Source: Amphiscolops sp. MND2022 (lineage: Eukaryota). Taken from it: a stretch of DNA of 64,000 nucleotides. Every line of letters starts with the position of its first letter. Position 1 is the stretch's first letter. The notes beneath the pieces were generated by a model, which was not told where the DNA came from, did no database searches, and worked only from the letters and a program-made list of their open reading frames with translations. Made by a program: the position numbers and the translations under genes. The DNA is taken from contig OZ076409.1 of the NCBI GenBank assembly GCA_964187785.1, positions 49,230,001 to 49,294,000 on the forward strand. Reading direction: 5' to 3'. Of this stretch, positions 3,871-64,000 are shown in pieces.

Positions 3871-5776
3871 CTATTTAACCAATTGGTATCAGAATGATGG
3901 AAGCACACTCTGGAAAATAATTTTATTTTCGTTTCGTCAAGTTTCTCCTACACTGTATGAACTATTTTTGTGGATTTTCCCCCATTAAAGCAACGAAACT
4001 TATAGTACAAGATTTGGATGCTTTCAGTGAACCTTATCAGGTTTGCACTTTTGTAAATTGCGAAACAGACTGGGAAATGTGCCTGAAATTGAATTTAGCT
4101 TCTAAATTTTATAAAAATAGAAATCTATGGCAAAAACGTTGTGGAAATAAATATGCTTTTTGATTTTTCAAGAAATAATTTGCAGTTGCAAAAATTTAAA
4201 CTCGAAGATACTGAATTTTGCCACACAAAATCTCACTACTTCAATCAGTCCCCTAATATATGCTGTGATGTTTGACATCAAAAAGCAGTCATATAGAAAG
4301 ATAAAAATCGCGTTCTTTAGAACTACTTGAGCAAATTGGCGGCAGTGGAACACAATACAGAGACGGTTCTTTGATCATCTTATCGTAGAAACATGGCCAT
4401 GTATCGGGACTCAATTGTTCCTAATTACAATTGAAGACCAACTTTCAACAAACCGTGTCTTCCTTCATAACTTTATTAGCAAAATCGTGAAATTGCGACA
4501 AAAGCATAATTTTTTGCATTGATTTCATGTCTTACTTACATGTGAAAATTTACGGAAATTTGAAATTCCTAGAAGTTTTTGAAAGAGGGAGCGAAATCGC
4601 GATAAACCGAAATCTTGTTCGAGACTCAGCTCGTCCAGTTGTTTGAACTTAAACCCTTAAATGCGAGGAACCATTCAAGTTTCCCTACTGAAATGGTTTT
4701 TTGTGTTCTGAAAAGTAATTTTTGAAGTTTTGAAAAATTCGATCTAAAATAGCTCCTGAAATCGATGGATGAAAAGGACAGTTGATACCCTGTTGTAATG
4801 CCCATCATCGATATCGAATATTGCCGATTCCAGACAAGCCTTCCAACAGAAAATTGATTCAAAATCTACTTTTGACATCGCGCAATTGTTCTGAAAAAGA
4901 TGATGCCGTTTGTAAAAACTTGCAAAGGCCACTTTTATCATATAAAGTTCATTGACCCAATTCGACTAGGTGTAAACCAAACGAAAAAGGTCCTTTTTTG
5001 GGATACTACCTCCCCAAAGCAAGCTACAGAACCATATTTGCTATCAAAAGTTCGGCTGTTGTCGGTATGAAGGTGTGGTTTCGACGAATTTTGATCAATT
5101 GCACAAAGATCAGATTGTTCGCTGTTTCTATTTTCATTCTTGTTTCCTCTGTTGAATGCATTTTCATTACAGTGGCTAGTTTTTTTCTCCAGTAGCTCTG
5201 ATCCGTTCACTTTTACGAAGTGAAGTATGAAATACAGATAAAGCAAATATTATACGGTAAAGACCAATTGGCTTAGGCAGCACACATATTCGAATTGTTG
5301 ACGACGTTATATCCGAAAAAATTGCATTTACCAAGAAGAGGCCGATGTTCGAAAGAGCGCTCGCACGTGACACAGCACGCTTTATTGCGTTTTGCGAAAT
5401 TTAAGGGTCTCCTTTTGGGTTTTTCAGCGCTATGAGACTTTACGGAAAGAAAAACGAAATGTTTTCCAAAAATTGGCTTTTTGATGTTTCGAGTTAGTGT
5501 GCGACTTTTCTGGAAAAATTAAATTTAATCAAAGGGTACGCCTTGCCAAGGCTCAGTGAGTTTCATAAATGTTTTCGGCTTGAAAAAAAATAGTTTAGCG
5601 AGCTTAAAGTTCCTTTTTGGCTCTATGAGACTTTTCCAAAGAGAAAAATTCGATTGTGTTCCACCAGTTGGGGAAAGAGGCGTATTTTGAGTCTTATGGT
5701 GCTGTAAATTCGATGAATATTTTCACAATGCTCTGGACCTTCGCATAGACAAAACACCGTTTTGTAAACTTGAGCG

Positions 5777-23200: not shown

Positions 23201-23615
23201 ACACCCGCGAATACTGACGCCACGGACCTAGACGCGCTTACACCGAACCATTTCGTGTTGGGAACTGCCAGTTCTCCGTTACCGACTACATTTCAGGCCG
23301 AAGTAGACCACTGGAAGCGGTACATTCGAGCGCAAGCGTATTCAGACGTAGTTTGGAATCGGTGTCTCAAGGAGTACGTTCCAACACTCAATCGCCGCTC
23401 GAAACGGTCGCATCCATCTGACTTAGAACTCGAAGCCGGAGATCTAGTTTGGATAGTAGAACCTACTGCTCCAAGAGGACACTATCCACTTGCCAGTGTT
23501 GTCAAGTTAAACTAAGGCACCGATGCCGTGGCTTGGTCAGAGGATGTTAAGACCTCTTCCAGCAATCTGGTCCGTCCACTTGTCAAGCTCTCTCCCGTTC
23601 TTCCTGTTCCTGAAT
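17220..23615 (+). pseudogene. BEL/Pao gag-pol pseudogene (many stops, frameshifts and deletions)
   Basis: See element entry; includes the gag core motif (WKLSQYNGDPVQWHEWFEQF, KVTYLKTLVTGK) and the integrase C-terminal block. Confidence 0.85.
18888..19562. mobile_element. ~675 bp insertion (solo-LTR-like) interrupting BEL gag
   Basis: gag reads QKFPPNM|KEAWS across the insertion (compare QKLPPNMREAWS in the young BEL); flanks AACA/AAAA resemble a 4-bp TSD; starts TGTATAAC. Confidence 0.75.
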
Positions 23616-45400: not shown

Positions 45401-45421
45401 ATTTTTGATGCTTGTGTCACA
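39475..45421 (-). mobile_element. Full-length Ty3/gypsy LTR retrotransposon
   Basis: 221-bp LTRs 39475-39695 and 45201-45421 that appear identical; perfect 5-bp TSD GTGGC; PBS TGGCGCAGTCAGC (minus strand, 45200-45188; tRNA-Ser-like); PPT GGAGGAGGGAA (39696-39706). Confidence 0.96.
39824..45172 (-). CDS. gag-pol polyprotein (gag, zinc knuckles, protease, RT, RNase H, spacer, integrase) in one frame, interrupted by a single TGA at 41954-41956
   Basis: CNNCKKMGHFAKVC; IIDTGS; KIDLDYAYGQ, VWLDDII; TDACNTGLGA, ELELL, TDHQAL; manual translation of 41953-41474 is open and in frame with ORF 39824-41473 (HHGH/CPSC, LDFAGP, TDNGSCF, VERAIR). Confidence 0.93.
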
Positions 45422-46247
45422 GTGGCGACCATCTATGATAGTAGAGGTGTTGATAAAGTGCTGTTGTAATACTTCGGGAATATGGTTTGCAGGAGTAGTT
45501 TTAGTAATCACTGGTAACTCGGAATACGTTCTGGTTATTTATTGGTCGTTTTCGTATAGTTAATTTTTGACAATTTCCTGGAATATCTGCCAGGATCTGT
45601 ATCAATATATCCAGATTGTTTCAAAAAAAGACCAAAATACCCGAGAACTCGAACGGTTTTACATTTCATTACAGTTCTGGTTCAGTCCTTTTCAGTATAA
45701 GTATCATTATTTTCATCAAAAATGCTGATAGTGCAAAGCTAGATGAATTTAACCAAGTTTCAAATAGTTTCCGTTTTGACACTGCTCCTGGCACCAAAAA
45801 GGGCTAATTTTGGTTTTACATTGGTGCCCTGTGAACTAAAAATGATTTCGAACCGCATTTTGATAACATTCGACACTTTCTATTGTCTAAAATGTACAGA
45901 AAATAATGGTGAACCAAACGATTTTTAGTTTCTCATTTTTACAGGGAAGAATTCAGTTTTAGAAAAACTCAGGAATTGAAGAACACGAAAAACTATTAAG
46001 CTACAAAGAACTAAGAATCGCCTTATTTGGTTTCTCATGAGCAACGTAAGCCCACGGGTCGATTTCTTGTTTGATTATAATCAAACCAGAAAATGGTCCG
46101 TCGTTTGTCTTTTTGCGCCTAGCCACTCGGCCATCATAAATTTTGGTATAAATCAATCCCGTAGTATTTTCTAAAACCAAATATAGACTAAAAGCCGTTT
46201 GACTCAGCATAATTTTCGGTACTTTTCAGGCAATAGAAAGTGTGGAA

Positions 46248-46352
46248 TGCAAATTATGGAATCGTCCTGACCATTCTTTGTTGCTGATTACAGGAGCATA
46301 TATGCTCCTGTAATCAGCAACAAAGAGTGGTAAGGACTATTCCAGGATCTGC
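46248..46352. repeat. Long palindrome (52-bp perfect core 46275-46326, no loop)
   Basis: tctttgttgctgattacaggagcata|tatgctcctgtaatcagcaacaaaga, with imperfect extension to ~105 bp. Confidence 0.95.
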
Positions 46353-47129
46353 AAGGTTGGAAGTGATACTGGTAGGGGCTTCAACAGTCCTTACTACACG
46401 TTGCAAATACTTCTTCGTTCTTGGGATCGAATTCTCTCATTAGGAGTGAGAACAGACTATGATAGATGCTACAGCGCCTCTACTAATTCTAAAATTCATG
46501 AAAAATCTAACTATATTTCATCAATGCAATTAAACAAGATCCATTTCAGACTCAGGCTGTAAGATTTTTAGTTTTCCAGTAGCTTTAACTATTTGTTGAG
46601 AATAGCTCCACTACAACTCAATTAAACCCGTAGGTACCATGCACGAGACAAGGACTGGCTGAGTATCTACATAAATTTTTATTAACTCCGAAGAAGAGAC
46701 GAATCAACTTAATCGAAGGCGGTGGGGGTAAGTGTGACAAGGAAATCACGATCTTTACAACTTTGCTATTTTTCCCTCTTTCAGGGGTTTGTCTCGCTAC
46801 TCTTGGACTGTTTGAAATTATCTTTTCGCTGATGAAAAGAAGCAGGTTGAACTTACCATACATCAAATAAATAAGTCGAGTAATAGACACAAATACAATT
46901 TCACATCCACGAATAATAGAATGAATAATATGATAACATCGATAATAGCGGAGAATATTACTGAGTATATTAGCAGGCATATTAGGAGGCATATAACACA
47001 AGAGAACAGTAAACAAGAATTTCAGCAAGGTTAAGCTTTTGTATCCGTAAGGATGGGGGTGATATCGAAGATATCGGAAGAGTCAACTCGCCGCAAAATC
47101 TCTATCGGTCTTGGAGTGAAAACAACAAT

Positions 47130-47244
47130 CCGTGTATTATCAGCCCACTTAGGCTTAAACCGTGTATTATCAGCCCACTTAGGCTCAACCGTGTATTATC
47201 AGCCCACTTAGGCTCAACCGTGTATTATCAGCCCACTTAGGCTC
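47130..47244. repeat. 29-bp minisatellite x4 (CCGTGTATTATCAGCCCACTTAGGCTCAA)
   Basis: Head-to-tail units without spacers. Confidence 0.95.
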
Positions 47245-48299
47245 TTTTACATGTAACACGATAGACCAGCAGTCCACCCTACTCCCGGGTCGAAATCCGT
47301 ACTAGCGAAAAGCGGGGTAGCAACAAATCAGGCAACTTCAGGTTGTTAGGCTGAAGGCACGGGCTAACCGGCCAGACGAAGTAAATCTGCAATTTCGATA
47401 GTCCGGCGTCTGATGCGGGATGCTATCGGACGCAAAGCAGCAAACCGTTCTCTAGATTTCAACTCACTTTGTGTGTCGCTAAAATGGCGCACACTTCGGC
47501 CTAAGTTACTTTTTCGGCAGTTTAGTCATATCATTATTCATAGTTTATCATCTTTCCTTTTTCGGGTTCTGACTAAGTGTTGAGCAATACAGTTTTTTCC
47601 TACTTCGGTACTGAAAGTTCATTAGGAGTACATTTTCTCAGCACGAGTTTGTCCTAGTTCCACCTCCTTGTCAATCATGACTGATGGTTTTACTTCGTTT
47701 TCAATAGAATTTAAGGGGTGGTGCTACTGACTCAGTGTTTCCCACTTTTGTAAGCACGACTTGAACTTCGGCTTACTGATTGACATTTGCACCTTTTGCC
47801 AGGTCTCTTTTTCTCACGCGGTTCCTGACAACTCTCTCCAGCTAAATCTGGGTGAAGGAAATAATTTTCTACAATTTACAATGACCTAAAAGGCGATTTC
47901 AATTCATATCAAAAAAAGTCGATTTTCGTGTTACAACTTCTAAGGGCAAAAACAAGGTGTTCCGATCACGGGGGGCAAAAACCAAGTACACCATTTGAAA
48001 GTACAGATCGTGGGCTACAAAAGCTTACTCCATGGTTTTCTTTCTATTTCAACTCCTTCACAATGAAAAACGCCTTTAAAGTTTGGTAGTCAAAAATCAC
48101 CCATCGGTTTTCACGCAAATCTCAACTTTGGAGTGCTAGTACTCAGTCAATTTGAAAGATACAGGCTGGGGGTTTATATACATCGTTAGCCCAAGCCATT
48201 AGGAGTATTTTGCACTTTAGATGAGGTCTCTATCTTTTCTCAACAAAATTTGATAGTACTTTTTCTGAAAGTAGTCATTTTCCCGATTTTTATGTCTGG

Positions 48300-51221
48300 C
48301 CAACGAGTTAGCCGTGCACTGTATTGTTTGTGTGCCCGATTCTTTTTCAGTAACGGTTGTAATGCCTGGTGGTCTGTTAGCAAATTAACTCTTTTACCGT
48401 AAACGTAATATCGGAAGTGCTCTAATCCCCATAAAGCTCCCAGTAACTCTAGTTCATTTATTGCGTATTTTCTTTCGCAGTCGGTTAAAAATCTACTGGC
48501 AAAAGCTATGGGCCTGAATACTATACCTTCCTTTTGCCATAGGGTCGCTCCCAGTCCAGTATTGCAAGCGTCTGTTGTGATATAGTTGTCCCTTTTTGGG
48601 TCGAAGTGGGCAAGACACGGGGCTTCCGTAATTTCCTTCTTCAGTTGTTCAAAGTCGTCGTCTATTTCTGCTGTCCAATCCCATTTGACATCCTTTTTGA
48701 GTAATCTCCTCATTCGATCGGTTTTCTTTGACAGATTATTGATGAATTTGGATAAGTGTTGTATCGATCCAAGGAAGGATTTTAACTCCTTCACGTTTTT
48801 TGGTGCGGCTAATTTCGTAATTGCCTCCGTTTTGTCCTCGATTGGTTTTACGCCATTCTGATTAATAAAGTAGCCGAGCCAGGTTAGTTCTTTCTTGAAC
48901 AGTTCCGTTTTCTTTTCGCTGGCTCGGTATCCGGCGTTTTGTAGTTTCTTCAGTACTTCTCGCAGTTCTTTTTCATGATCATCAATGCTTCCATTCGTCA
49001 CGCAAATGATGTCATCTAGCCAAACAGGGGTTTTAAATTCTAGCACGTTGTCAATGTGTTCTTGGAATACCGTCGGAATGTCAGATAATCCGTAGAAACC
49101 CTTCTTGAAGCGGTAATGACCAGTGAAGTCTCCGCCAATTATTGAAAATACACAGTGTTTGGCTGCTTCTTTTGCTAATTTTGCCTGGCCGTAGGCGTAG
49201 TCCAGGTCTATTTTAGACATCCAGATTTCGCCTTCGCCGTTAGTTATTTTGGCGGAGATTTTGCTGATTAATTCCTCCATGTTTGGCATTGCTGCTTTTC
49301 GCTTTACGCATGCCTCGTTAAGTTTTCTTGAATCCAGGGCGATTTTGACCGACTTGTCCTTTTTGATGGTTATGACGGCAGGGGAAATAAAACAATTTTC
49401 TGTAGTCTCGTCCGCTTTCTCGATATGTCCCGATTTGATAAGTTTCTCCAGTTCATCTCGGACGCTTTTTTGAAAGTGTATGGGGACTGGTCGTCCCTTT
49501 TGTTGTATGGGCTTTACATCTTTCTTCAGCTGAATGTCGATTGTTAGGTCTTTTATGGTGTGGTTGTTTTTGAATAAGTCTTCGTGTTCGTTGATAATTT
49601 TCTTTCGTCTATCTTCTTCTTCCACATAGCGGATCACATTTGTCTTTTTGCTGCCTTGTAGTCCAATTTCCAGTCTATCCAGCCAGTCCAATCCCAACAG
49701 TGGTTGTGTGTTTTTGTTCTCTGTGATCAGGATAGGTAATGTCTCTTTGCTTTTTTCCGTTTTCACTTCGACCATGGCCTCGCCCTTGAATTTGATGGGG
49801 TTTTTATTCACGTCGACAAAAGTTTTTGTCGTTTTCTTTATGTCTTTTGGTGTGATAATTGGAGGTATGATGGTCACGGGTGAGCCTGTATCAATGATAA
49901 ATTCTATTGGTTGGCCATGGACCAATAGGATTGCTTTGTAAAAGTCAATGCGGTTCACACCGTTGACGGACTGAATATGGTCAATCTCCGGCCATGGTTC
50001 GGTACTGCTGTCCGATGAAGCCGTTTCTTTTATCCGGCTGACGGTCTTGGATTTGCATACTTTGGCAAAGTGTCCCATCTTTTTGCAATTGTTGCATTGA
50101 GCCTTCCGTGCCGGACAGATATGTTCCATTGACCAGTTTGGTTTTCCACAAAAGCGGCAATCCCGGTTTGGAAAGTTCTTTTTCTCGGTAAAATTTGTTT
50201 TGCGTTTCCGTGACTGGTTGGTATGGCCGATCAATTCGGTGGATGTTGAGCTGTTTGATGAATCTTTCCGGGCTTTTTTGCTTTTCGGCCTCTTGTCCCC
50301 GTATTTTCGGTTGTAATTGTCAAGTTCTATCGTGTCGAGGACGAGTTGTAATTTCAGGGGGCCTCTTATGAATTTATCACGGGCTTTTTTGTCTTTTATT
50401 GTTGATGCGAATTTGTATGTAATGATTTCCTCTGCTGTGATGTTGCCGAAGTCGCACTTTCTCTCGATGTCTACGAGTCTCTTCCAGTATTCATCGAGTG
50501 TTTCATTGTCTTCCTGCTTCATGTTAAAGAACTGTGCCCGGCTATGAAATATATTTCTTGCAGGGAGGAAAGTTTTCTTGAACAGGGTTAGTAGTTCGGA
50601 AAGATTCACTTCTTTCAGTTCACGGCCCCATTGACCTCTCATGATTTCATGTTTGGCTTTTGGGCCAAGTGCCCAGATAACATCACCTTTAATGTGGTAG
50701 ACTGTGTGGGGATCCATGTATTCTGTCCCTTCATCGATGATTTCTTCTAGATTTCGGTTATATGTCAAATGGATGTATTCCGAAATCTGCTCCCACCACA
50801 TTTTGGGATTGATTTTGGTGAGGTCTGTTTCCCTGTCTGATAGTATGGGAATTTTGTATTTGATTTTCTCCATCCGTTCTGACGATGTTGTAGTGTTGTT
50901 CGTTCTGGATGATCGTTCCGATATATTCGGCTCACCTTCATTTAGGTTCGGATTGGTGTTGTTGTTTTCCATTGTTTTGATCAGATTGCTGACTGCGCCA
51001 TAAAGTAGGTCAGGAAAAGTTCAAAGAATGTATTAAGACTGGAATGGTTCAAAGTAACAAAGCTGTATCAAACGACTGTACTTTATCTTCAACTTGTATC
51101 TATCTGTAACTACATGACTTCAGAACATAAGATCATTGGCAGGTAGTTTTGTGTCATGTTATTCGCCAAGGTTTATCATTGACACTTGTTGGATTGACAC
51201 ATTTTTGATGCTTGTGTCACA
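48300..51221 (-). mobile_element. Duplicated 5' half of the Ty3/gypsy element (LTR 51001-51221, PBS, gag-PR-RT-RH; ORF 48240-50972 truncated at the junction)
   Basis: 910-aa ORF nearly identical to 41954-45172 up to ...SARLTRW, then reads into flanking DNA. Confidence 0.93.
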
Positions 51222-52048
51222 GTGGCGACCATCTATGATAGTAGAGGTGTTGATAAAGTGCTGTTGTAATACTTCGGGAATATGGTTTGCAGGAGTAGTT
51301 TTAGTAATCACTGGTAACTCGGAATACGTTCTGGTTATTTATTGGTCGTTTTCGTATAGTTAATTTTTGACAATTTCCTGGAATATCTGCCAGGATCTGT
51401 ATCAATATATCCAGATTGTTTCAAAAAAAGACCAAAATACCCGAGAACTCGAACGGTTTTACATTTCATTTCAGTTCTGGTTCAGTCCTTTTCAGTATAA
51501 GTATCATTATTTTCATCAAAAATGCTGATAGTGCAAAGCTAGATGAATTTAACCAAGTTTCAAATAGTTTCCGTTTTGACACCGCTCCTGGCACCAAAAA
51601 GGGCTAATTTTGGTTTTACATTGGTGCCCTGTGAACTAAAAATGATTTCGAACCGCATTTTGATAACATTCGACACTTTCTATTGTCTAAAATGTACAGA
51701 AAATAATGGTGAACCAAACGATTTTTAGTTTCTCATTTTTACAGGGAAGAATTCAGTTTTAGAAAAAACTCAGGAATTGAAGAACACGAAAAACTATTAA
51801 GCTACAAAGAACTAAGAATCGCCTTATTTGGTTTCTCATGAGCAACGTAAGCCCACGGGTCGATTTCTTGTTTGATTATAATCAAACCAGAAAATGGTCC
51901 GTCGTTTGTCTTTTTGCGCCTAGCCACTCGGCCATCATAAATTTTGGTATAAATCAATCCCGTAGTATTTTCTAAAACCAAATATAGACTAAAAGCCGTT
52001 TGACTCAGCATAATTTTCGGTACTTTTCAGGCAATAGAAAGTGTGGAA

Positions 52049-52153
52049 TGCAAATTATGGAATCGTCCTGACCATTCTTTGTTGCTGATTACAGGAGCAT
52101 ATATGCTCCTGTAATCAGCAACAAAGAGTGGTAAGGACTATTCCAGGATCTGC
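52049..52153. repeat. Second copy of the long palindrome (core 52076-52127)
   Basis: Part of the 5.8 kb duplication. Confidence 0.9.
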
Positions 52154-52935
52154 AAGGTTGGAAGTGATACTGGTAGGGGCTTCAACAGTCCTTACTACAC
52201 GTTGCAAATACTTCTTCGTTCTTGGGATCGAATTCTCTCATTAGGAGTGAGAACAGACTATGATAGATGCTACAGCGCCTCTACTAATTCTAAAATTCAT
52301 GAAAAATCTAACTATATTTCATCAATGCAATTAAACAAGATCCATTTCAGACTCAGGCTGTAAGATTTTTAGTTTTCCAGTAGCTTTAACTATTTGTTGA
52401 GAATAGCTCCACTACAACTCAATTAAACCCGTAGGTACCATGCACGAGACAAGGACTGGCTGAGTATCTACATAAATTTTTATTAACTCCGAAGAAGAGA
52501 CGAATCAACTTAATCGAAGGCGGTGGGGGTAAGTGTGACAAGGAAATCACGATCTTTACAACTTTGCTATTTTTCCCTCTTTCAGGGGTTTGTCTCGCTA
52601 CTCTTGGACTGTTTGAAATTATCTTTTCGCTGATGAAAAGAAGCAGGTTGAACTTTAATTACTATACATCAAATAAATAAGTCGAGTAATAGACACAAAT
52701 ACAATTTCACATCCACGAATAATAGAATGAATAATATGATAACATCGATAATAGCGGAGAATATTACTGAGTATATTAGCAGGCATATTAGGAGGCATAT
52801 AACACAAGAGAACAGTAAACAAGAATTTCAGCAAGGTTAAGCTTTTGTATCCGTAAGGATGGGGGTGATATCGAAGATATCGGAAGAGTCAACTCGCCGC
52901 AAAATCTCTATCGGTCTTGGAGTGAAAACAACAAT

Positions 52936-53050
52936 CCGTGTATTATCAGCCCACTTAGGCTTAAACCGTGTATTATCAGCCCACTTAGGCTCAACCGTGT
53001 ATTATCAGCCCACTTAGGCTCAACCGTGTATTATCAGCCCACTTAGGCTC
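52936..53050. repeat. Second copy of the 29-bp minisatellite
   Basis: Part of the 5.8 kb duplication. Confidence 0.95.
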
Positions 53051-55033
53051 TTTTACATGTAACACGATAGACCAGCAGTCCACCCTACTCCCGGGTCGAA
53101 ATCCGTACTAGCGAAAAGCGGGGTAGCAACAAATCAGGCAACTTCAGGTTGTTAGGCTGAAGGCACGGGCTAACCGGCCAGACGAAGTAAATCTGCAATT
53201 TCGATAGTCCGGCGTCTGATGCGGGATGCTATCGGACGCAAAGCAGCAAACCGTTCTCTAGATTTCAACTCACTTTGTGTGTCGCTAAAATGGCGCACAC
53301 TTCGGCCTAAGTTACTTTTTCGGCAGTTTAGTCATATCATTATTCATAGTTTATCATCTTTCCTTTTTCGGGTTCTGACTAAGTGTTGAGCAATACAGTT
53401 TTTTCCTACTTCGGTACTGAAAGTTCATTAGGAGTACATTTTCTCAGCACGAGTTTGTCCTAGTTCCACCTCCTTGTCAATCATGACTGATGGTTTTACT
53501 TCGTTTTCAATAGAATTTAAGGGGTGGTGCTACTGACTCAGTGTTTCCCACTTTTGTAAGCACGACTTGAACTTCGGCTTACTGATTGACATTTGCACCT
53601 TTTGCCAGGTCTCTTTTTCTCACGCGGTTCCTGACAACTCTCTCCAGCTAAATCTGGGTGAAGGAAATAATTTTCTACAATTTACAATGACCTAAAAGGC
53701 GATTTCAATTCATATCAAAAAAAGTCGATTTTCGTGTTACAACTTCTAAGGGCAAAAACAAGGTGTTCCGATCACGGGAGGCAAAAACCAAGTACACCAT
53801 TTGAAAGTACAGATCGTGGGCTACAAAAGCTTACTCCATGGTTTGCTTTCTATTTCAACTCCTTCACAATGAAAAACGCCTTTAAAGTTTGGTAGTCAAA
53901 AATCACCCATCGGTTTTCACGCAAATCTCAACTTTGGAGTGCTAGTACTCAGTCAATTTGAAAGATACAGGCTGGGGGTTTATATACATCGTTAGCCCAA
54001 GCCATTAGGAGTATTTTGCACTTTAGATGAGGTCTCTATCTTTTCTCAACAAAATTTGATAGTACTTTTTCTGAAAGTAGTCATTTTCCCGATTTTTATG
54101 TCTGGACTTTCAACTTTGGAGGCCAATATCTCGAAACCAGGGCATTTTTCGGAAAAACGCTTCTGCTAAACGCTGTGCGCCTGGGTCTTGTGCGTCTACC
54201 CTGAAAATTTCAGCTCGATATCGCCCAAAACGTGCGGGGGGGGGTTCGCATTTTGGTAGGTCGACATCCCTATCGGCTGAAAGAAATCACAACTTTAAAT
54301 TCTTGGGGGTTCTTCGCTAGCGCACCGCAGCACTCTATTTATTATTCTATTCACTCTTCCACTTCAATTCTCAAGTACGCTGTGAAGGGGGCGGCTATTG
54401 TGCGCTTACACGTTGAGTACTACGCGATAACATGCGAAAAACGGCTTTTTAGGCCATTTTAGGGCTGTTTTTAACGTTTGCTGGCTCAGTTCTCAAAAAC
54501 TACTGAATATTATTTATTTTCCAATTAACACAAGTTAGGGCATCCATTTATCTTTAATTTAAGCCATATCCGAACAATTTCTGACAACTGTAGCGATCAC
54601 ACGAAATTTTTAAACGAAACTCAATTTTGGAAAATCGTCAAAATTTTATATGCACTTATTTTTAAAGCGTCTCCCCGAAATGTTCCCGGGGTCGCACAAC
54701 GCTCATATTCTCAACTTAAGCTCTCCTTTGGATGGGCTTTTGAATGCTGAAAACCGTTTGTTGCTATCTTTTTTCATCTTCGAGAAATCGGGTTTTGATT
54801 TTTAATTTCTATTAAGAGGGGGGATTAATTCAAAGTGTGCGGCGGCCGTTTTCTTATTAGCTACGCGTACAGCCACTCACAGCGCGTTCTAATTTTCATT
54901 CCTTTCGCTTTCTGACACGCTTAGGTGAGTTGCATTCAATGCTTATACCGCGTACTGTGAAGTTTCACTCTCGCATACCCTCAAATACACGTATTAACAT
55001 AGCGATTTTGACTAAATTCTACATACCGTGAAA

Positions 55034-55984
55034 ATGGCTTCATCTTCTAATTCTCGATCTTTAAAGTACAAAACTGATTACTCAACACGTAGTCAGAGTG
55101 TGGTTGACCGTATGAATGACATTTACAACACTTTTAATGCTAATAACACTGTTTCTGACTTTACTATAATTCATGAACTTTGGCCCCGTTTCCCCACTAT
55201 TTCCCCTGTTAATTTTAATTCTATTTCTCCCCCGCAGCCTTGCATTCTTGCCGGCGTTAATGTTCAGCCTAGGGGCATTTTAAAACAGCTTTCTGATAAA
55301 CCTGATTTAGTTTGGGCTGATTTTGAGAACATTCCTGATTATCCTTTAATTAATATTACAAAAGGCCCGGAGTATTCTGTAACTCGCGAATTTATTAATT
55401 CTATGCAAGGGGATATGGACTTTGCTAATTGTCTTACGTCTTTTTCTTTTCTTGATCAAATTGTAACTAGCTGTATAGGTTTATTAGTACAGGGCCCTTG
55501 GTTTTCGTATGCGCATATTGAAGTTGGAGGAGGCGCTTCTTATGCACTTCTGCATACGGGAATCAAAATATGGTGTGCGACCACCACTAATAGTTCTTCT
55601 CGTTTGTTAGAACGTTGCTGCAATAATGCAAATAACTTCATTGATTTCGTTCAAAGGGGGCCACGGGACAAGGAGGCTAATTATTTAAGATTTACTATTC
55701 AGCGGCCGGGGGATTTAATTTACGTTCCTAGTTTGCGGCCTCACGCCGTCCTCACCCTAGACACAGGTAAGCCTACTATTTTATCGGGGTGGGACGCGTC
55801 TACCATTGCTGATTCAACCATCATTACTCGGACACTGGATGAGTACATCATAGGAGTTCGACGTGGCACCTGGAGGAAGATTTTACGGACACAGGGCAGA
55901 GAGGCACTACGAAATTGGGTATTTACTCCCGCAAAGGGCCCTCAAGCATCTAAAGAGAATTTACGCAAACACTGGACTTATTGA
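55034..55984 (+). CDS. Intronless JmjC (cupin-fold Fe/2-oxoglutarate oxygenase) domain protein
   Basis: FSYAHIE (HxE), GIKIW, FTIQRPGDLIYVP...PHAV (distal His); ATG at 55034; AATAAA at ~56094; TGA at 55982 may be premature (frame continues 13 codons to TGA ending 56026). Confidence 0.8.
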   Translation: MASSSNSRSLKYKTDYSTRSQSVVDRMNDIYNTFNANNTVSDFTIIHELWPRFPTISPVNFNSISPPQPCILAGVNVQPRGILKQLSDKPDLVWADFENIPDYPLINITKGPEYSVTREFINSMQGDMDFANCLTSFSFLDQIVTSCIGLLVQGPWFSYAHIEVGGGASYALLHTGIKIWCATTTNSSSRLLERCCNNANNFIDFVQRGPRDKEANYLRFTIQRPGDLIYVPSLRPHAVLTLDTGKPTILSGWDASTIADSTIITRTLDEYIIGVRRGTWRKILRTQGREALRNWVFTPAKGPQASKENLRKHWTY

Positions 55985-57292
55985 GAGACTTATTGTCCGC
56001 ACTTACTTTCTAAATTATCTGTTTGATTCTTTTGTTTAATTAGTCGATAACACCCCCGGTTCGTTTTCATAACCTTGCTGAGTAATTAATTTAAATAAAC
56101 TTCTTTACTATACATACGAAAAAGGTCAAAAATCCTACACAGGCAAACTAAAAGTTTGACAAAAGTTACTACTTTTACTGGAACAACACTTTTCTATGTA
56201 TTTGTGAAGATATTACGCTCACTTCATTTTCTGACTTTTCGATGCAAGTTTTGAATGATTTTTGATTGCATGTTGCTAAAATTATTCAAGGCAGAAAAAA
56301 ATTCCGGTGCATAGTAGTATCTTGTATATCAAGATGCCAGTTTTGAATTATTATTACCTCTCATGTGCAGTGTGAGGTTTCTCAATATATACGAGTTTCT
56401 CACCTGCTTGGCGTTTTTCCTCTCGTCTACTTTTGACAAAATTCCACCACTTGGCAGCTGCCCACGCACTTAGCTCCAGTTCCCTTAATTCTAATGTTGT
56501 TCTTGCGTTGTGCAACTAAAAAAAATCACTAAACTGTTTATACTCTGAAACCCAAATCTTCAGTTGCTTTTCATATTTCATGCCTTCCAGTCAGATCGTT
56601 TACAGCAGAACCAATCTTTACTCCCATTTGAATTCTTGTAATGAGAATTGACTGAAACAAGCCGGCAACGGCATAAGGCTCAAAAACAGCAAAAGAATTT
56701 CAAAGCGTAAAAGATTTTCTTTTGAATAAATTCTCGATTCCACAGTACCAAAAAACCCAAAGGGTGACCCTTTTGGGCCCCATAAGGGCTTTTTTTGCTC
56801 TCAGCCGCACGAAAAATATATCTATTTATCAAGGCAAATTATTTTATCAAGGCTTCTATCAGAAATTTATTATTTTTTATCAACTTTTTTTTCCAAAACT
56901 ACCAAAAACCAAAATGGGAACCTTGTGATAAATAAAAGAGTTTCCGAAAAACAGTCTCAAAGTAGCAAAAAAACGCCAAAAAAACAACCCTCAATGCTTC
57001 ATTGTATTCAAATAATTCTGTCAAAATTTGAAAGGGAGGCTCCCTACGAACAATGTTCTAGTTTTAGGAGTTTCGTGAAAATTTGGCATTCGGCATGAAA
57101 TGGTCAGTTCGACCGGAATGAAAAAAAATTGCTACGAAAATTCATAGTAGTCGCGTTTTATTTCATAAAGCGCCAACTAAAAATAAAATGAACATGATCC
57201 TAAAATTTTCCGAAAATCCGGAACTTCTTGAGAACAATTTTTCAGGAATTTTCATAATGCTTGTTATTGACTGATTTGAAATCAACTAACAA

Positions 57293-58582
57293 TGTTATCG
57301 TTCGTTGTATCATCTCCTGGAAAGTCATCATCAAAGAAAAGTTCATTTGCAGCACTCTGAATTAATTAGATACAACATACTTTCACTCACAATAATGTAC
57401 TCCATTTTATAAAAAGTTGACGGATTTTCACCGGGTTTTCATGGAAGTTTCTAGTTTTCCGAGGTAGATGGCATTGAAGTACTTTCCTCTCGGGTTCGCG
57501 AGTTCCTTTTTTGTAGGACTTTTCTCTTTGATTGTGTTGGAAATATCACGGCTGCAGTAGTGTTTACACTCTCCGTGTCGCTGCTATCTGCATCGAACAC
57601 CGCCGCTCCCGCGCGCGAAGCAGAGGTGGTGCTGCTGACAGTAGTGGGCGTAGAGACTGCAGTTGTTGTGGTAGACGTTTCGTTATCTAGAGTTAGATGT
57701 CTAAACATAGCTCGTTGGAAGGAGTTGATGTCCACTCGTGGGCGGTGGGGCGGCTGGGGGTGGACCTGGAAAGATCTATCCCAGGGAGATTCTCCGTGCT
57801 GCACCCAACTCCACATATATTGATGCATCGGTGCTCTCCAGTGAAATCTAGTACTGAGGGGATTCCCCTCAGCTCTGGGGCCTTCGTCAGGCAAGGCAAG
57901 AATCCTTACCAAAGTAGCCATAAAATTGCTCCGTTCGGGTTTTTCGATGGAGGCCTGAATTACTGCCATCAGAATTTGCCGGGTCATTTCGCAGTATAAG
58001 CTCAGTCTCATCCACTGGGGATACCACAATGCGTCCAGCGGAGAGTACTTCTCCAGGTGGAAATAGATATAGTCCACGCCAGGCGCGGGTGTTTCGATTT
58101 TGTTTAATCGGTATGTAGTCAGTGGGTTTCCTGCTCGTAATGTGAGCGGCAGAACGCCTGATGTCATGGGCATATTCGCATTACGGGTGTCATCATTTGC
58201 GGTGCTGTACAATTGCGTTGGCACAAAGGCTGACAAGTTTCCTCCTTGAATATTGTAAGTATTGGCAGACGACGTAGATTGCATTTTCAAGAGTGTTTTT
58301 TTTTCTATCTTTAAGTTGAAAATAATTTTTGAGGTGGTTGCAACTGTAAACGACTGATCAGTTAAGGAACAATTTTTATACTGACTGGATTTTTTTTTTG
58401 TTATTTTTGTAAAATTTTACTTTCCCATCATTTAATTGATTGACATATCGTTTATCACAACTTTTAAAAATTTTCCCTCGTTTGTCCAAGTGGGGAACAC
58501 CGTAGAATGACCTATCAGTTGAGTTATGAGGGCAAATAAATACAGGGGGGGTGGAGTTTAGTACAAATCAGCACAAGTTACA
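57293..58582 (-). repeat. Putative 3' LTR (~1290 bp)
   Basis: On the minus strand, purine-rich GAGAAAAACCGTGAGAATATA just after the env stop is followed by TGTAAC (58582); ends ...CGATAACA (57293); partner LTR is outside the window. Confidence 0.55.
57451..58290 (-). CDS. Accessory ORF (279 aa, unknown function) inside the putative LTR
   Basis: Uninterrupted ORF, same strand as pol/env; Trp/aromatic-rich central region and Ser/Thr-rich, basic tail; first ATG at 58284. Confidence 0.7.
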   Translation of the reverse strand: MKMQSTSSANTYNIQGGNLSAFVPTQLYSTANDDTRNANMPMTSGVLPLTLRAGNPLTTYRLNKIETPAPGVDYIYFHLEKYSPLDALWYPQWMRLSLYCEMTRQILMAVIQASIEKPERSNFMATLVRILALPDEGPRAEGNPLSTRFHWRAPMHQYMWSWVQHGESPWDRSFQVHPQPPHRPRVDINSFQRAMFRHLTLDNETSTTTTAVSTPTTVSSTTSASRAGAAVFDADSSDTESVNTTAAVIFPTQSKRKVLQKRNSRTREESTSMPSTSEN

Positions 58583-58613
58583 TATATTCTCACGGTTTTT
58601 CTCGGGAAGACTC

Positions 58614-60881
58614 TCATTTTGGATGAGGCTTTGGCTTCTTCGTCTCCGTTGGGACAGAGTCACCGGTCCCTGTTTTCACTTCCTCCCGTGCGGATGTTGT
58701 GGGAAGATTCTGGAGTTGCTCTGCTATGCGAGCCAGCCGGTCTGCATCGGTTTCGTCTCCTCCTCTTCGTCTCCAACCCAGTACTCGCTGAATGCACCGC
58801 TGCATGAGGAATAGTTGTCCCTTCTTGATCGCCCAGCACAACAGTGCAAATAAAATTAAAACAATTAATGTAACAACACAAGGTAACACAATATCTTTCC
58901 ACACCTTTTTGATGACGGTTGAATGAACCTTTTCGACCTCAGTTAAAAATGGCTTAGCAATTGCGTCTAGCATTTCTTCCGTAATTGCTCGGTCTGGCAA
59001 TCCTGCTAAGTTTAATTTTAAATGAGATAACAATTCTTGATGGACATCTCCCATTAAAGAGGGAGGAATTACCTCTTCTAGGTCTTTCAGATTTTCGAAT
59101 AAAGGACGTAGTAGAGGGGTAGGCGTAATTCGGACGATTTCGCTGGCTTTACCTGTTGCACAGGATACCGGGTCAGGAGTCAAGAACAAGCCAGCGTTCG
59201 GGAGCTGCAGTCTTCCTTCACACGTAGGCCGAACTAGACAACTTTGGCATGCGGGGACTCGGTAGTCAATTGTGCCGGTCATATTTTGCATGGTAAAGTC
59301 GCCTTTGGCCGAGGTTAACAAATAAGTTGAATCGTATAAGTATATGGCTTGGGGATGCTGCGGAAGGGCTACAACTTCTTGTGCACACAACTTCAGTACG
59401 GTGGCAGGGAGATTAAAGAACAAACCGGTGAGACACGTCGTTTTCTGCGATTTAGTAGTCGAGAAAGGTTGTTTACATAGCCTAAGCCGGTGGGAGCCCC
59501 AACAATGCGTTGACAATTCTTGTTCGGTTACTTCCGCAAAATTTGTTTTATCCCAAGACATTAACAAATGTGTTTTTGTAAGTTGATATTGCGTTGCGCG
59601 TTCGGAATTGGGAATCGGTTGCGGGATTGGAGTCGCTCGATATACTTCATGAATTCCGTGTCCCGCGTACATTGGAATTTCGAGCAACATGTGTAAACCT
59701 TCATCCGTCACATACGCATCTCTTACAATTTCAAACGAATAGTAGGCGGCGATTAATTTCCTGGGGATAGCCTCATTAAGACCGGTAACATGATAAGAGT
59801 CTAAAATTTTCTTTAACGTCGACGGCGGAATTAAGGAAATTGGCAAGTAGCCATGGACTAGCGATGACATAGCTTCTTGTAGCATAGACGCCATATTAGA
59901 CAACGAAATGCGTCTCTGGTTGATATCATTAACAATTCTTTTATACTGAGTAGTTAGATTTTGGAAGGCGGCGGCTATAATTAGAGTGTTACGGTGTCGG
60001 TCTTGAGTTAGCCTAACAACACACTCTGCTTTCTCTACATAATCCGTTATTTCGTCTATCACTCCATTAACGGTGCTATTTAACATCTTGATGTTATCGT
60101 CTAAGGACTGTTTTAGCGTCAATAACTTTCGGCCTTCTACATCAGCAGGCAAGCGTACGGTTATCGCTTCTAACAGCTCCGTTCTCAAATAAACTACCTC
60201 ATCTTGTAACACTTTAATTTCTCTGGCCAGTTCTTCAATAATTTCCCGTTCTTTACTTCGGCACACGGATCCAAAGGGGATCAGGTCATCAACGAAGCAG
60301 GAGATTTTATCTGTCACGGAGCCAAATATCGGGCGCAGAAAGACATGAGCTAGCTCACTTCCGATCATCGATCCCGCTACGGTTCCAACAATAGATCGAG
60401 AGTAGCGATTAGGTTTTTCTAACGGAATGTCGTCTACCGTATGGTTAAGAAATACGGTTAGCGCTCTCCGCATTGCTAGCCAATCTTGTTGAAACATTTT
60501 ATGGCTTTGAAAAATTTCTGCAAGGTTGTCGCGCAAAAATCTTTTCCAATATTCGAATAAATGAGGATCAACACATTCATGATGGAACATACGGATATCA
60601 AGGGATACTAGTCGAGCTAATGCATTGTCCAAAATTTCGTTCAGTGGTTCCGGGTCCAATTGGGGTATTTGGGGAAACGGAATAAAAGTCCAAATGGTCT
60701 TGATAGACTTAACGAGTACAACTGGCGGTTCCGGAGTGAATGCCGCGCCGGAAATAGAATGAGTACCATTTACGAACCCGGGTTGGTTGAATCTCCGCTG
60801 GAAGTCGAAGGGGTCGAAGGTGTCTTCGTCTCCTCGAATATCACCCGTGAAAATAATGATAACAAGTACCAAAAGTTTCAT
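58614..60881 (-). CDS. env: Env-like glycoprotein, baculovirus-F/errantivirus-type class I fusion protein (755 aa)
   Basis: Signal peptide MKLLVLVIIIFTG; furin-like RYSR followed by hydrophobic SIVGTVAGSMIG; heptad repeats; GYLPISLIPPSTL and LEIPM...VYRATPIP motifs; Cys-rich region; several N-x-S/T sequons; TM IVLPCVVTLIVLILFALLCWAI. Confidence 0.85.
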   Translation of the reverse strand: MKLLVLVIIIFTGDIRGDEDTFDPFDFQRRFNQPGFVNGTHSISGAAFTPEPPVVLVKSIKTIWTFIPFPQIPQLDPEPLNEILDNALARLVSLDIRMFHHECVDPHLFEYWKRFLRDNLAEIFQSHKMFQQDWLAMRRALTVFLNHTVDDIPLEKPNRYSRSIVGTVAGSMIGSELAHVFLRPIFGSVTDKISCFVDDLIPFGSVCRSKEREIIEELAREIKVLQDEVVYLRTELLEAITVRLPADVEGRKLLTLKQSLDDNIKMLNSTVNGVIDEITDYVEKAECVVRLTQDRHRNTLIIAAAFQNLTTQYKRIVNDINQRRISLSNMASMLQEAMSSLVHGYLPISLIPPSTLKKILDSYHVTGLNEAIPRKLIAAYYSFEIVRDAYVTDEGLHMLLEIPMYAGHGIHEVYRATPIPQPIPNSERATQYQLTKTHLLMSWDKTNFAEVTEQELSTHCWGSHRLRLCKQPFSTTKSQKTTCLTGLFFNLPATVLKLCAQEVVALPQHPQAIYLYDSTYLLTSAKGDFTMQNMTGTIDYRVPACQSCLVRPTCEGRLQLPNAGLFLTPDPVSCATGKASEIVRITPTPLLRPLFENLKDLEEVIPPSLMGDVHQELLSHLKLNLAGLPDRAITEEMLDAIAKPFLTEVEKVHSTVIKKVWKDIVLPCVVTLIVLILFALLCWAIKKGQLFLMQRCIQRVLGWRRRGGDETDADRLARIAEQLQNLPTTSAREEVKTGTGDSVPTETKKPKPHPK

Positions 60882-61341
60882 CCTGCGACTATACTAGCGA
60901 GTCGGAAGAGGACGAAAGTTGATAATAGGGTATAATAAGATAGCACAAGACGATAATAGGTTTTTTTTAAAGGTTTCTAAAGCGTAATACGGGAGGCAAA
61001 AGTCGATCGAATTGATTGTAGAGTTGATAACTACAATTTTTCTATTCTAGCGACTGGCTAAGTTGAGGTTAAATTACGGAATGAAGCAGAGTCGATAGCG
61101 ACACGGATGACGCTCTTTTTCTGACTCAGCACCTCGTGACGGACTGTTCGAGCTTACGTTAATTCGATTAGTCATGCTCGCGAACGGCTAAACGAATGAT
61201 GAGCTTCATTACTTCGGATGACTCAACTCACCTGACCATCACCCGAAGACATCATTGTTATTTTGGCTTTACCACGTGTTCGTCTATGCCGAAGCGTACT
61301 GGCGGTCGACGATTCCGTGTCGTTTCGATTATCAGCGAATC

Positions 61342-63003
61342 TTAACGTTCGCTTTCGTTGTCCTCCTCGTCTGAAGGAGGCGAAGTATTTCTATTGTCGT
61401 TTATTTCTTCATAAACAGGAAATGAAGACTCCTCTGACGGTGCGGGGACGTCTATATACAACGGGCAATTAGTCCGAGTAGTCTCTTCGTCGTTTTCGGC
61501 GCTTATCACGCGGGGAACGTCATGAAATGACACGTGCGGCCGGTTTTTATTGGCTTGGATTTCCGCCGAAGTAGGGCGGAACACATGATACGGTCTATTT
61601 TCGGTCTCTTGGTCGGATGAATCGGATTCATCTGCGACTTCTTCATAACTCGGAAGCGTTTTTGTTGCCACTCGTTCGGATCGTTTCGGGAGGGATTCGC
61701 CAAGATACGGTTTAAGACGATTAAAATGGATATTCTGCCACTTTTCCGGGCAACCTGGCTTGCAAATCTGATAGTTCACTTCACTGGTCTGACTCAATAC
61801 TTCGTATGGACCGTGCCAAGGGAGATGGAACTTTCGGGATTTCGCTTTGTGTGGCTCGAATAACCACACTCGGTCTCCTGTTTTAAAACTTTTTCCATGG
61901 ACCTTTTTCTGATAATAATCCTTCTGACGACGTTGTTCTTTCCCCATAGTCAGTTGCGCATGACTATGTACTTCGAATAGTTTATCACTCAACTCGGCTC
62001 CTACCTCGCCTAATTCTAAACGGGGGTCGCCAGGAGGTTTCGGATAGAATAAGTCGATCGGATATTGTGCTTCTCTCCCGTACAACATCGAAAACGGGGT
62101 CGTACCGAGGGTCTTATGTACGGTGGTATTGTACACAAAATTGACGTGGGGCAAGTAGAGATCCCACTCCTGCGGTTTTTCGGCGCAATACTTAGAAATA
62201 GTATCGGCAATAACTCTATTGAACCTTTCTACTTGACCATTTCCTTGGGGATGATACGGAGAAGTCCTAGTTTTATCGATCATGAAAACTTGGCAAATAT
62301 CTTTCATTACTTCACTGTTGAAGTTAGTTCCTTGATCCGTATGTAAAGTATCGGGAGCCCCAAATTTCAAAATCCACTCTTCGACTAAAGTCGTGGCCAC
62401 CGTCTTAGCCGTCATGTCTTTCAAAGGAACGGCAACCGCATACTTTGTATACAAATCGGATATAACTAAAATGTATCGCGCCTGTGACTTTTTCGCTAGC
62501 GTTACGGGTCCCAAGATATCTGCTGCAACAATACGAAACGGCGCCTTTGCTTCGATTGTTTGCAAATGAGCTTTTCGACCTTTTCCCGCCGTTGATCTAG
62601 CCGCGCAACGCGTGCATTTTGCAATATACTTTTCTACACTTGACCTGAGACCAGGCCACCAAAATCTCTGTTTAATCCTTGATAACGTTTTCTCGGCTGC
62701 AAAATGACCTCCGCTAAGAGGGGAGTCATGTAACTGATATAACACTTCGGCTCTCATAGTCGAAGGAACTACTGCCTGCCATATTTCACGTTCACGATTG
62801 CTAGGTTTCCATTTTCGATAAAGGACTCGATTGGCCAGCGCTAGCTGATCCCAATCACTCCAAAGTTCTAACGCTTCTGGACAACTCCATCCTAATGCTA
62901 CTTCTCTGGGGATGGGGTTGGGCCCTAAATCTTCCAATGTACCATCTATCCGAATTCCACGTCTAACCATTTCACGGAATAGTAATCCCGTACTACGATC
63001 CAT
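61342..63003 (-). CDS. Ty3/gypsy integrase (pol C-terminus)
   Basis: HDSPLSGGHF...CTRC; AADILGP, HTDQGTNF, SPYHPQGNGQVERFNR; GPY motif WHGPYEV. Confidence 0.95.
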   Translation of the reverse strand: MDRSTGLLFREMVRRGIRIDGTLEDLGPNPIPREVALGWSCPEALELWSDWDQLALANRVLYRKWKPSNREREIWQAVVPSTMRAEVLYQLHDSPLSGGHFAAEKTLSRIKQRFWWPGLRSSVEKYIAKCTRCAARSTAGKGRKAHLQTIEAKAPFRIVAADILGPVTLAKKSQARYILVISDLYTKYAVAVPLKDMTAKTVATTLVEEWILKFGAPDTLHTDQGTNFNSEVMKDICQVFMIDKTRTSPYHPQGNGQVERFNRVIADTISKYCAEKPQEWDLYLPHVNFVYNTTVHKTLGTTPFSMLYGREAQYPIDLFYPKPPGDPRLELGEVGAELSDKLFEVHSHAQLTMGKEQRRQKDYYQKKVHGKSFKTGDRVWLFEPHKAKSRKFHLPWHGPYEVLSQTSEVNYQICKPGCPEKWQNIHFNRLKPYLGESLPKRSERVATKTLPSYEEVADESDSSDQETENRPYHVFRPTSAEIQANKNRPHVSFHDVPRVISAENDEETTRTNCPLYIDVPAPSEESSFPVYEEINDNRNTSPPSDEEDNESER

Positions 63004-63034
63004 TCTCTGACCATACGCTAGGTCGCTATCTGAT

Positions 63035-63600
63035 CTAGTCCATGAGATATGCCCCCCCCACTTGCTCTGATATTAACATTTCTTCAGGGGTAACGACGGA
63101 ACAGGCGGAATCTGCACTTGATGAACGCGGGGTACCTCGTCTTGCCGAAGTCGAAGGGTACAATTGCTCTTGGTCTCTCGGTGTATACACGGAGATCGTA
63201 AAATACGAATCTTGAAACACAACCTCTAGACAAATAGCTACATTCACCCACTCCAATTCGTCATCGACGCAACCTATTCTAGGCATTGCAAGTTTGGAAA
63301 TTCCATGGGAGCTAGCATGTTCTTTCACTCTCAATAGACTTTCTTTTAATACATCGTATTTGGCAACTTCTCCTTTACAATGCTTGGTGATCAATATGTA
63401 CACATAACGTCCTTTTCAACATCTTGGTACACTAGAAAACCTCCAACACGATTTACCGACTCTGCGAGAGGTGGTAAATGGGAATACTTTTTTACGAACG
63501 ATTTCATGGGAGCAGTGGCTACTCTCATGTCGGCAGATACACACAAAACTAAGGAATCGGGGGATTCGAAAAAATCCCCTTCTCGATAACGGACTACCTC
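63035..63600 (-). CDS. TARG1/OARD1 (Poa1p/DarG-like) macrodomain within pol, split by a frameshift at ~63410
   Basis: VRYREGDFF...SLVLCVSADM...(fs)RYVYILITK...YDVLKESL...GISKLAMPRIGCVDDELEWVNV...LEVVFQD..FTISVY. Confidence 0.8.
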
Positions 63601-64000
63601 TCTAGGTGGGTGAGAAATTTGCATTTTCAAATGCCGAGCTACATCCTCTGAGTTTTCCAATTTCTCACGAGCTTTGGTTCGGGCGGCTCTAAGATCGCGT
63701 TCGGCTTCAAACAAAGCACTATCAAATTCGGTGAATTCGGGGATCGGTCCCCTTAACGCATCTTCTTCGCCGGGGAGCCATTGGGGTACGTCATTCGGTC
63801 GTCGACTAAGACCGTCCGCATTGCAATGTTTATCACCTGGACGATGTACTATTTGATAGTCATATTCCTGAAGTTTCTGAACCATTCGAAAAGTCATTCC
63901 ATCCGCATTTTGTCTAAACAACCATTGAAGACTTGCATGATCTGTGCGAATAATACATTTGGATCCGTAAATGTACGGTCTGAACCACTGGACGGCTTGA
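63601..64000 (-). CDS. Ty3/gypsy RNase H C-terminal part and linker (partial, runs off the window)
   Basis: AVQWFRPYIYGSKCIIRTDHASLQWL...LQEYDYQIVHRPGDKHCNADGLSR. Confidence 0.92.

Follow-up and report, generated by a model that had tools for sequence, protein, structure and literature searches.

A Probable Errantivirus-Like env Gene in a Ty3/gypsy Family of Amphiscolops, with a Macrodomain in pol and a JmjC-Like Gene Nearby

Introduction

What is an open reading frame (ORF) with the features of a viral fusion glycoprotein doing in the genome of Amphiscolops sp. MND2022, and is it part of an element that may still spread or a gene taken over by the host? The ORF lies in a stretch of 64,000 nucleotides (contig OZ076409.1 of assembly GCA_964187785.1, positions 49,230,001 to 49,294,000), which is called here the window. 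An original prediction, made from the sequence alone, described it as an intact envelope (env) gene with the hallmarks of baculovirus F and errantivirus Env, possibly fusion-competent and thus able to support cell-to-cell or horizontal spread, or else available for co-option by the host. The analysis presented here indicates that it is very probably the env of a recently expanded family of Ty3/gypsy retrotransposons with long terminal repeats (LTRs), errantivirus-like in the broad sense, and that its product is a class I fusion protein of the F type.

The env gene alone would not surprise specialists, as its class has already been mapped across animals. The corresponding survey reports in its main text 1,512 Ty3/gypsy elements with env, found in most animal phyla; they have an F-type Env, a furin site, a fusion peptide, and many near-identical copies (Chary & Hayashi, eLife, PMC13524379).

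An Intact env Gene on the Minus Strand

The proposed gene is indeed intact. Its 755 codons contain no stop and lie on the minus strand, with both ends exactly where they had been placed; the plus strand across the same interval has stops throughout. Given the local composition, an open frame of this length has a chance of ~1e-19. All of the anatomy named at the outset is present in the translation, i.e., the N-terminal hydrophobic segment, RYSR with its hydrophobic peptide, the heptads, both motifs, the Cys-rich region, the transmembrane segment, and the tail. The signal peptide and the transmembrane helix are called by hydropathy. The parts are placed as follows.

58614..60881, minus strand: env ORF, 755 amino acids (ATG at 60,881, stop at 58,614), assigned to the F-type class I fusion glycoproteins
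60831..60881, minus strand: putative signal peptide, residues 1–17 (hydropathy only)
60396..60407, minus strand: RYSR, a minimal proprotein-convertase site (R-x-x-R), residues 159–162
60336..60395, minus strand: putative fusion peptide, residues 163–182 (hydropathy; low confidence in the structural model)
59856..60257, minus strand: long heptad-type helices forming the N-terminal heptad region, residues 209–342 (sequence script and model)
59160..59504, minus strand: Cys-rich beta region with eight conserved Cys, residues 460–574 (model and alignment)
58902..59108, minus strand: membrane-proximal helices, residues 592–660 (model)
58836..58892, minus strand: transmembrane helix, residues 664–682, followed by a tail of ~73 residues (hydropathy)

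The N-terminus is hydrophobic over residues 3–13, with a Kyte-Doolittle (KD) value of 3.18, and the same value is reached by the transmembrane helix, which is single and C-terminal. RYSR matches R-x-x-R and not the R-x-K/R-R form. The hydrophobic peptide that follows it (residues 164–182, KD 1.44) contains three Gly and two Ala. Heptad-type stretches extend over about residues 208–345 according to the sequence script, and the motifs GYLPISLIPPSTL and IP...Y...PxP are found at residues 344–356 and 402–424, respectively. The ectodomain has 12 Cys, and the protein has five N-glycosylation sequons.

Identity of the Encoded Protein

Env has many relatives: 34 among 8,000 candidates, at 39%–99% identity, and 492 in the representative library at E ≤ 0.001. 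An alignment of 69 rows was picked by length from the 34 relatives and 150 listed matches, and each of the 12 ectodomain Cys is present in 83%–98% of the rows covering its position. The Pfam family Baculo_F is matched by seven of these 69 rows (E ≤ 0.01, best E 5e-7). A profile of the alignment retrieves from the PDB the entries 9w4d (E 7e-8) and 9w4c (E 1e-7), both named only "fusion protein," with paramyxovirus and pneumovirus F as further weak rows. In the Atlas, the look-alikes of Env are Baculo_F and Fusion_gly clusters at 0.92–0.93, which are weak matches, the recognition score of Env itself being low.

The AlphaFold model of Env has a mean predicted local distance difference test (pLDDT) value of 79.9. 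Compared with the PDB by Foldseek, it gives 210 matches at E ≤ 1e-3, and the F proteins of human metapneumovirus (hMPV), human parainfluenza virus 3 (hPIV3), and respiratory syncytial virus (RSV) head the list. Among the 51 matches in BFVD, chuvirus-like glycoproteins and baculovirus F lead (E 1e-18 to 1e-13), together with an uncharacterized abalone herpesvirus protein. VIA aligns Env to hMPV F and post-fusion RSV F over 309–315 residues (Z 7.8–7.9, root-mean-square deviation [rmsd] 5.5). The pneumovirus and paramyxovirus F proteins (PF00523) are thus the top matches among solved structures and cover most of the Env ectodomain, but they share only ~10% identity with it, and the ectodomain of Env is longer (~645 residues), as is the helical stretch that follows its fusion peptide. 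With baculovirus F (PF12259) and the Env of insect errantiviruses, Env has in common the GxLP..L.PP and IP...Y..P.P motifs, whereas identity in the baculovirus fold matches is 11%–14%.

Several results weigh against this identification. Searched alone, Env has no Baculo_F (PF12259) match in Pfam at E ≤ 0.1 and no match among PDB sequences. The cleavage loop and the fusion peptide are poorly modeled (pLDDT under 50). The fold scores are modest, with Foldseek TM scores of 0.2–0.47, large rmsd, and VIA Z values under 9, and coronavirus S2 equals or exceeds F in VIA (Z 8.9), with fewer residues aligned. A trimer prediction for residues 203–532 in three copies (score 0.01, mark 0.42) is counted neither for nor against. 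Although single scores are not strong, the tests agree, and the reading of Env as an F-type class I fusion protein is supported by sequence and model together. The comparison of the model with baculovirus and paramyxovirus F, suggested at the outset as a check on a class I fold, gives an F-like ectodomain with modest but consistent scores. The Pfam check suggested alongside it fails for Env itself and succeeds for the seven relatives. The description as baculovirus F or errantivirus Env holds in the broad sense and not in the narrow one, as the best structural matches include glycoproteins of chuvirus-like, baculovirus, and pneumovirus/paramyxovirus origin alike. Because Env itself lacks a Baculo_F match, the label "baculovirus F / insect errantivirus" is too narrow, and Env has no special tie to baculoviruses.

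The Element That Carries env

Upstream of env and on the same strand, the window contains the end of an RNase H followed by a full integrase, and a further ORF lies on the other side of env.

61261..64000, minus strand: 3′ part of a Ty3/gypsy pol, with the end of its RNase H, the macrodomain, and the integrase, continuing past the window edge
57451..58281, minus strand: ORF-X, 276 amino acids from the first ATG, with a Ser/Thr-rich C-terminus, putative member of the element

The closest long pol protein (P0508) is 99% identical to that of the window and belongs to a cluster of 624 members, fragments included; a related one of 1,552 residues (P0503) is 68% identical. Both have the order protease, reverse transcriptase (RT), RNase H, integrase, and have Ty3 Gag-Pol as best PDB match. 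The env cluster has 47 members, and 11 of the 15 listed have 755 residues. Ten cluster members of this length differ from one another at 1–16 residues and from the window copy at 4–13, the latter having three private substitutions. Intact full-length Env is found in at least six clusters, at 37%–99% identity. In a sister subfamily, a complete pol of 1,552 residues and an env of 754 residues are on one contig, and long pol and full-length env occur on common contigs in two sister subfamilies (contigs matched by equal size in both cases). Judged from these relatives, the element is a young multi-copy Ty3/gypsy family. ORF-X has no Pfam family and no usable match in the Atlas.

It counts against the reading as a Ty3/gypsy element that no gag, LTR pair, primer-binding site, or target-site duplication is visible within the window, the 5′ end lying beyond it. 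The LTR search found no long repeat of 54,106–64,000 elsewhere in the window. Searches for related loci found none in the viral contigs (env, pol) or the genome contigs (env, JmjC), and the metagenome contigs yield a single one, L001, whose 1,761 nucleotides are too short to reach the element ends.

The window copy is damaged. Its pol shifts frame twice, near 63,415 and near 63,055, and is interrupted by a stop codon in frame at 61,342–61,344, and a JmjC-like ORF on the opposite strand (see following) ends 14 residues short of its nearest relative. These breaks may be real mutations or assembly errors. As its pol is broken, the window copy is probably non-autonomous, and for the same reason the spread foreseen in the original prediction is unlikely to proceed from this copy on its own. 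One might see in an env that stays intact beside three breaks in pol and one in the JmjC-like ORF the mark of a host-domesticated, syncytin-like fusogen. However, when four breaks are distributed in proportion to length, chance alone would be expected to spare env (P = 0.15), so that the co-option envisaged at first has no case. Moreover, env is one of 47 near-identical cluster members, it still adjoins the integrase, and the breaks may themselves be assembly errors. Domestication of this locus is, in sum, highly improbable, and env is better regarded as a component of the Ty3/gypsy family.

Selection, Cleavage, and Fusion

Between subfamilies, env can be compared through L001, which belongs to a sister subfamily. 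Over 505 codons, the two Env sequences have 70% amino-acid identity, and the proportion of synonymous differences (pS) is saturated at 0.82, as against a nonsynonymous one (pN) of 0.19. Hence, by this comparison, the env of the family is under purifying selection between subfamilies. Two short noncoding motifs 3′ of env (58,480–58,545 on the minus strand of the window; 1,625–1,745 of L001) are also kept across this distance; they are possible promoter or processing signals.

The cleavage region is conserved as well. An R-x-x-R stands ahead of the hydrophobic peptide in all 30 close full-length Env relatives examined, and of the 31 rows with 640 residues or more, 24 have a basic site with a hydrophobic peptide after it, compared with 196 of 1,550 shuffles. 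Two features of the site argue in the other direction. Ser is found at P2 in 16 of the 30 close relatives, all of them from the window subfamily or its nearest sister, and RYSR differs from the R-x-K/R-R form present in 20 of the 24 long homologs with a clear site. In the comparison of rows, the KD of the fusion peptide is 1.1 here versus 1.25–2.4 in distant relatives.

These data bear on an alternative in which Env is of F origin and is no longer a working fusogen in the window subfamily, whose copies would be too young to have decayed. The minimal cleavage site, the weaker hydropathy of the fusion peptide, and the three private substitutions of the window Env all fit it, and an intact env ORF within the subfamily is expected by chance (P = 0.15, as above). 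The strong purifying selection between subfamilies does not fit it, nor do the retention of R-x-x-R and of all 12 ectodomain Cys and the occurrence of intact full-length Env in at least six clusters. A loss of function of this kind is unlikely. On balance, sequence and model lean toward an Env that truly fuses membranes in the family, and fusion competence of the window Env, claimed in the original prediction, is plausible.

A Macrodomain inside pol

The pol of this family has an additional domain.

63182..63609, minus strand: TARG1/OARD1-like macrodomain, placed between RNase H and integrase; two frames share it in the window copy

The match to TARG1/OARD1 has E 9e-15 for the C-terminal half in the window and E 2e-20 for residues 782–924 of P0508, where the likeness to the human protein (TARG1/OARD1/C6orf130; PDB 2l8r, 4j5r) extends over ~140 residues. 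The macrodomain is separated from the integrase zinc finger by ~135 residues. Among the 120 pol matches listed, it is present in six, which are six of the seven closest. The Lys and the Asp aligned to the catalytic pair of TARG1 (K84/D125) are both kept. On the other hand, the GAGIA loop has given way to another sequence, and Val or Ile stands where a Gly follows the RIGC motif in TARG1, so that the domain may bind ADP-ribose differently from TARG1 or no longer bind it.

In the main text of the survey cited above, the so-called ancient errantiviruses share with the present family the pol–env order, the Ty3/gypsy pol, the F-type ectodomain, the furin site, the fusion peptide, the transmembrane segment, and the near-identical copies. 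In their bridge region, however, an RNase H domain described as "mini" or "pseudo" is present (PMC13524379), and the bridge region here contains a TARG1-like macrodomain. Neither "macro" nor "JmjC" occurs in that main text; three acoel-related names were absent from it, and six from seven supplement files. ORFs with macro domains are mentioned for epsilon-like endogenous retroviruses of fish in the available part of another report (PMC4977317).

The Neighboring JmjC-Like Gene

Two further features lie on the side of env away from pol.

55034..55984, plus strand: JmjC-like 2-oxoglutarate/Fe(II) oxygenase ORF, 316 amino acids, antisense to env and 2.6 kb away
56040..56062, minus strand: candidate polypurine tract and 3′ LTR start (G-run then TGTTA), unconfirmed

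The JmjC-like assignment is a weak one, drawn from sequence and model. The ORF has 153 relatives, and the nearest cluster has 67 members (97% identity). The triad H161, E163, H237 (H-x-E...H) is invariant in 13 of 13 sequences and is conserved at 90% or more in 40 rows, and a Lys is also conserved; triad and Lys are shared with JMJD5, JMJD6, FIH, and TYW5. In VIA, JMJD5, JMJD6, FIH, TYW5, and JMJD7 rank first (Z 5.5–6.6), and the weak Foldseek rows listed are all of the JmjC type, mixing KDM6, FIH, and KDM4. Against the assignment, the match to Pfam JmjC (E 0.0019) is below the cut-off, with no other domain in the ORF, the model is poor (pLDDT 55.6), and Foldseek returns no match for it at E ≤ 1e-3. 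The JmjC profile gives no match among PDB sequences, and the ORF differs from JmjC hydroxylases in having no close cellular relative. Exact look-up of the JmjC-like ORF, ORF-X, and two pol pieces in the protein collection found none of the four.

Is this gene part of the element? The lists of contigs with env and with JmjC relatives have 11 contigs in common, all matched by subfamily. Contigs with both genes make up 3/18 in the window subfamily, 5/10 in its nearest sister, 2/15 in the third, and 1/22 among the single sequences. The 97% env sequences are paired with the 97% JmjC sequences, and the subfamily whose env is at 75% with the one whose JmjC is at 57% (the 5/10 contigs). Across the 12 co-located pairs, pairwise identities of env and JmjC are correlated (Mantel rho 0.72, 58 of 66 comparisons usable, a value reached in 0 of 10,000 permutations). 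Because the sharing of contigs is subfamily-matched, the JmjC-like gene is probably co-mobilized with the element. Some points tell against this. Contigs were equated by identical size only, near-equal sizes not being counted; env groups E4–E6 have 0/15, 0/13, and 0/4 contigs in common with JmjC; and the groups were defined after the lists had been seen, with the 12 pairs falling in three clusters, so that P values overstate the case.

The JmjC-like gene might instead belong to a separate repeat, be it a different transposon or a multigene family, and lie near these elements by chance. It is on the opposite strand, 2.6 kb from env, with no proven boundary between them, and several JmjC clusters have no listed contig in common with env. 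Chance proximity would nevertheless leave unexplained why all 11 common contigs pair like with like and why no permutation reaches the Mantel value. It is the less probable reading, though one of some weight, and co-mobilization is preferred.

The pattern of a G-run and TGTTA occurs four times in the window, once at 56,052–56,062 on the minus strand, and since it misses the known LTR junctions of the window, this site is a candidate only. If it is the polypurine tract and 3′ LTR edge, the JmjC-like gene follows as lying inside the LTR. Genes in such a position are familiar, as sag of mouse mammary tumor virus and nef sit in U3. A near-identical pair of JmjC sequences (330/330 amino acids, three differences) is found together with a full-length env on a contig of 66 kb, and other near-identical pairs occur on single contigs (368/368 and 178/178 residues, contigs equated by size). 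Env likewise shows two near-identical pairs on the same contig. The candidate edge and the JmjC pairs are compatible with a gene in the LTR and are no proof of it. A lineage resembling complex retroviruses, with an F-type Env, a macrodomain in pol, ORF-X, and an antisense JmjC gene in a long LTR, is accordingly a tentative and rather doubtful proposal; it would place two enzyme copies in each integration, and these might modify the chromatin of the host or other factors that take part in silencing.

A possible 78-nucleotide intron (GTGAG...TAG) lies at 54,925–55,002 on the plus strand, shortly before the JmjC ATG, and an AATAAA is present ~110 nucleotides past the stop. A JmjC relative (P0338, 66%) and a pol relative (P0516, 52%) are in bacterial metagenome bins and are probably animal DNA. 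The pol relatives P0513 and P0516 carry GDSL/SGNH Pfam domains, and the lineage seems prone to gaining extra enzymes.

Judged by the papers listed in literature searches, neither a JmjC gene carried by LTR elements of animals nor a macrodomain in a gypsy pol is on record, most subscription papers and Repbase reports being outside the search. The AlkB-type demethylase carried by orchid Gypsy elements (PMC9289625, available part) is a precedent, as here, too, the cargo is a 2-oxoglutarate oxygenase; it is, however, of the AlkB type, and no env is mentioned for the element in that part of the paper. The env of the window is a further member of the kind surveyed in PMC13524379, and the macrodomain and the probable JmjC cargo are the less ordinary part.

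Other Repeats in the Window

Pao/BEL elements are metazoan, and the window has one at 32,137–37,553 on the plus strand, with two identical 298-bp LTRs and an ORF in two frames; the 5′ end of its gag seems to be lacking. Its presence near env points to an animal as host. A degraded Pao/BEL copy at 20,177–23,515 is 69% identical to this younger one. A second gypsy element, without env, occupies 39,475–45,421 on the minus strand; its 221-bp LTRs are identical, and it has a target-site duplication of 5 bp. It is given a third LTR by a 5.8-kb tandem duplication of 99.7% identity at 42,500–54,105, which is either real or an assembly artifact. An LTR-like stretch at 52,522–53,057 on the plus strand, with a duplicate at ~46,721, is preceded by a G-rich tract, has an AATAAA and tandem repeats (four of 29 bp), and adjoins a second TGTAAC start at 53,058. 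Positions 1–4,947 contain a direct duplication of 2,036 bp (99.8%) with an RT fragment. The sole host-gene-like match among the ORFs scanned is a weak one to CFAP77 at 30,446–31,021 on the plus strand (E 4e-4, below the cut-off).

Discussion

How would such an Env act? The env ORF starts 460 nucleotides after the integrase ORF, and a pyrimidine tract and CAG stand directly before its ATG. The protein would be translated from a subgenomic RNA, either spliced or internally promoted. The signal peptide would direct it into the secretory pathway, and, as is usual in its class, it would be glycosylated and form trimers. A furin-type convertase would then cut after the RYSR seen in the sequence, giving two subunits held together by a disulfide, one of ~145 residues and the other of ~590 residues with the fusion peptide at its start. 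Upon a trigger, the N-terminal helices would extend and the membrane-proximal helices fold back, merging the membranes; the fold is that of the model, and the refolding is taken from paramyxovirus and baculovirus F.

Particles of Drosophila gypsy offer a precedent for passage from somatic to germ-line cells. By analogy with gypsy and with the Tor element of Oikopleura (PMC4402516), intact sister copies may make particles that pass from somatic to neighboring or germ-line cells. Tor is likewise a non-insect element of the gypsy type, and the available part of its description presents Tor Env as a glycosylated membrane protein with products of the size expected from cleavage, its env being driven from an internal promoter and expressed in the embryo beside germ cells (PMC4402516). 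The gypsy-type TelKA of rotifers, also non-insect, has an F-like Env with an RXXR site; in the part of that paper that is available, the rotifer elements have extra ORFs for GDSL and DEDDy proteins, with no mention of JmjC or macro domains (PMC5408684). Within those parts, fusion itself is not shown for the Env of either TelKA (PMC5408684) or Tor (PMC4402516).

More speculatively, the macrodomain of pol and the JmjC-like gene are candidates for acting against host silencing or ADP-ribose signaling. If both prove to be fixed parts of the element, the family would provide a way to study how host silencing is countered and which host marks are relevant.

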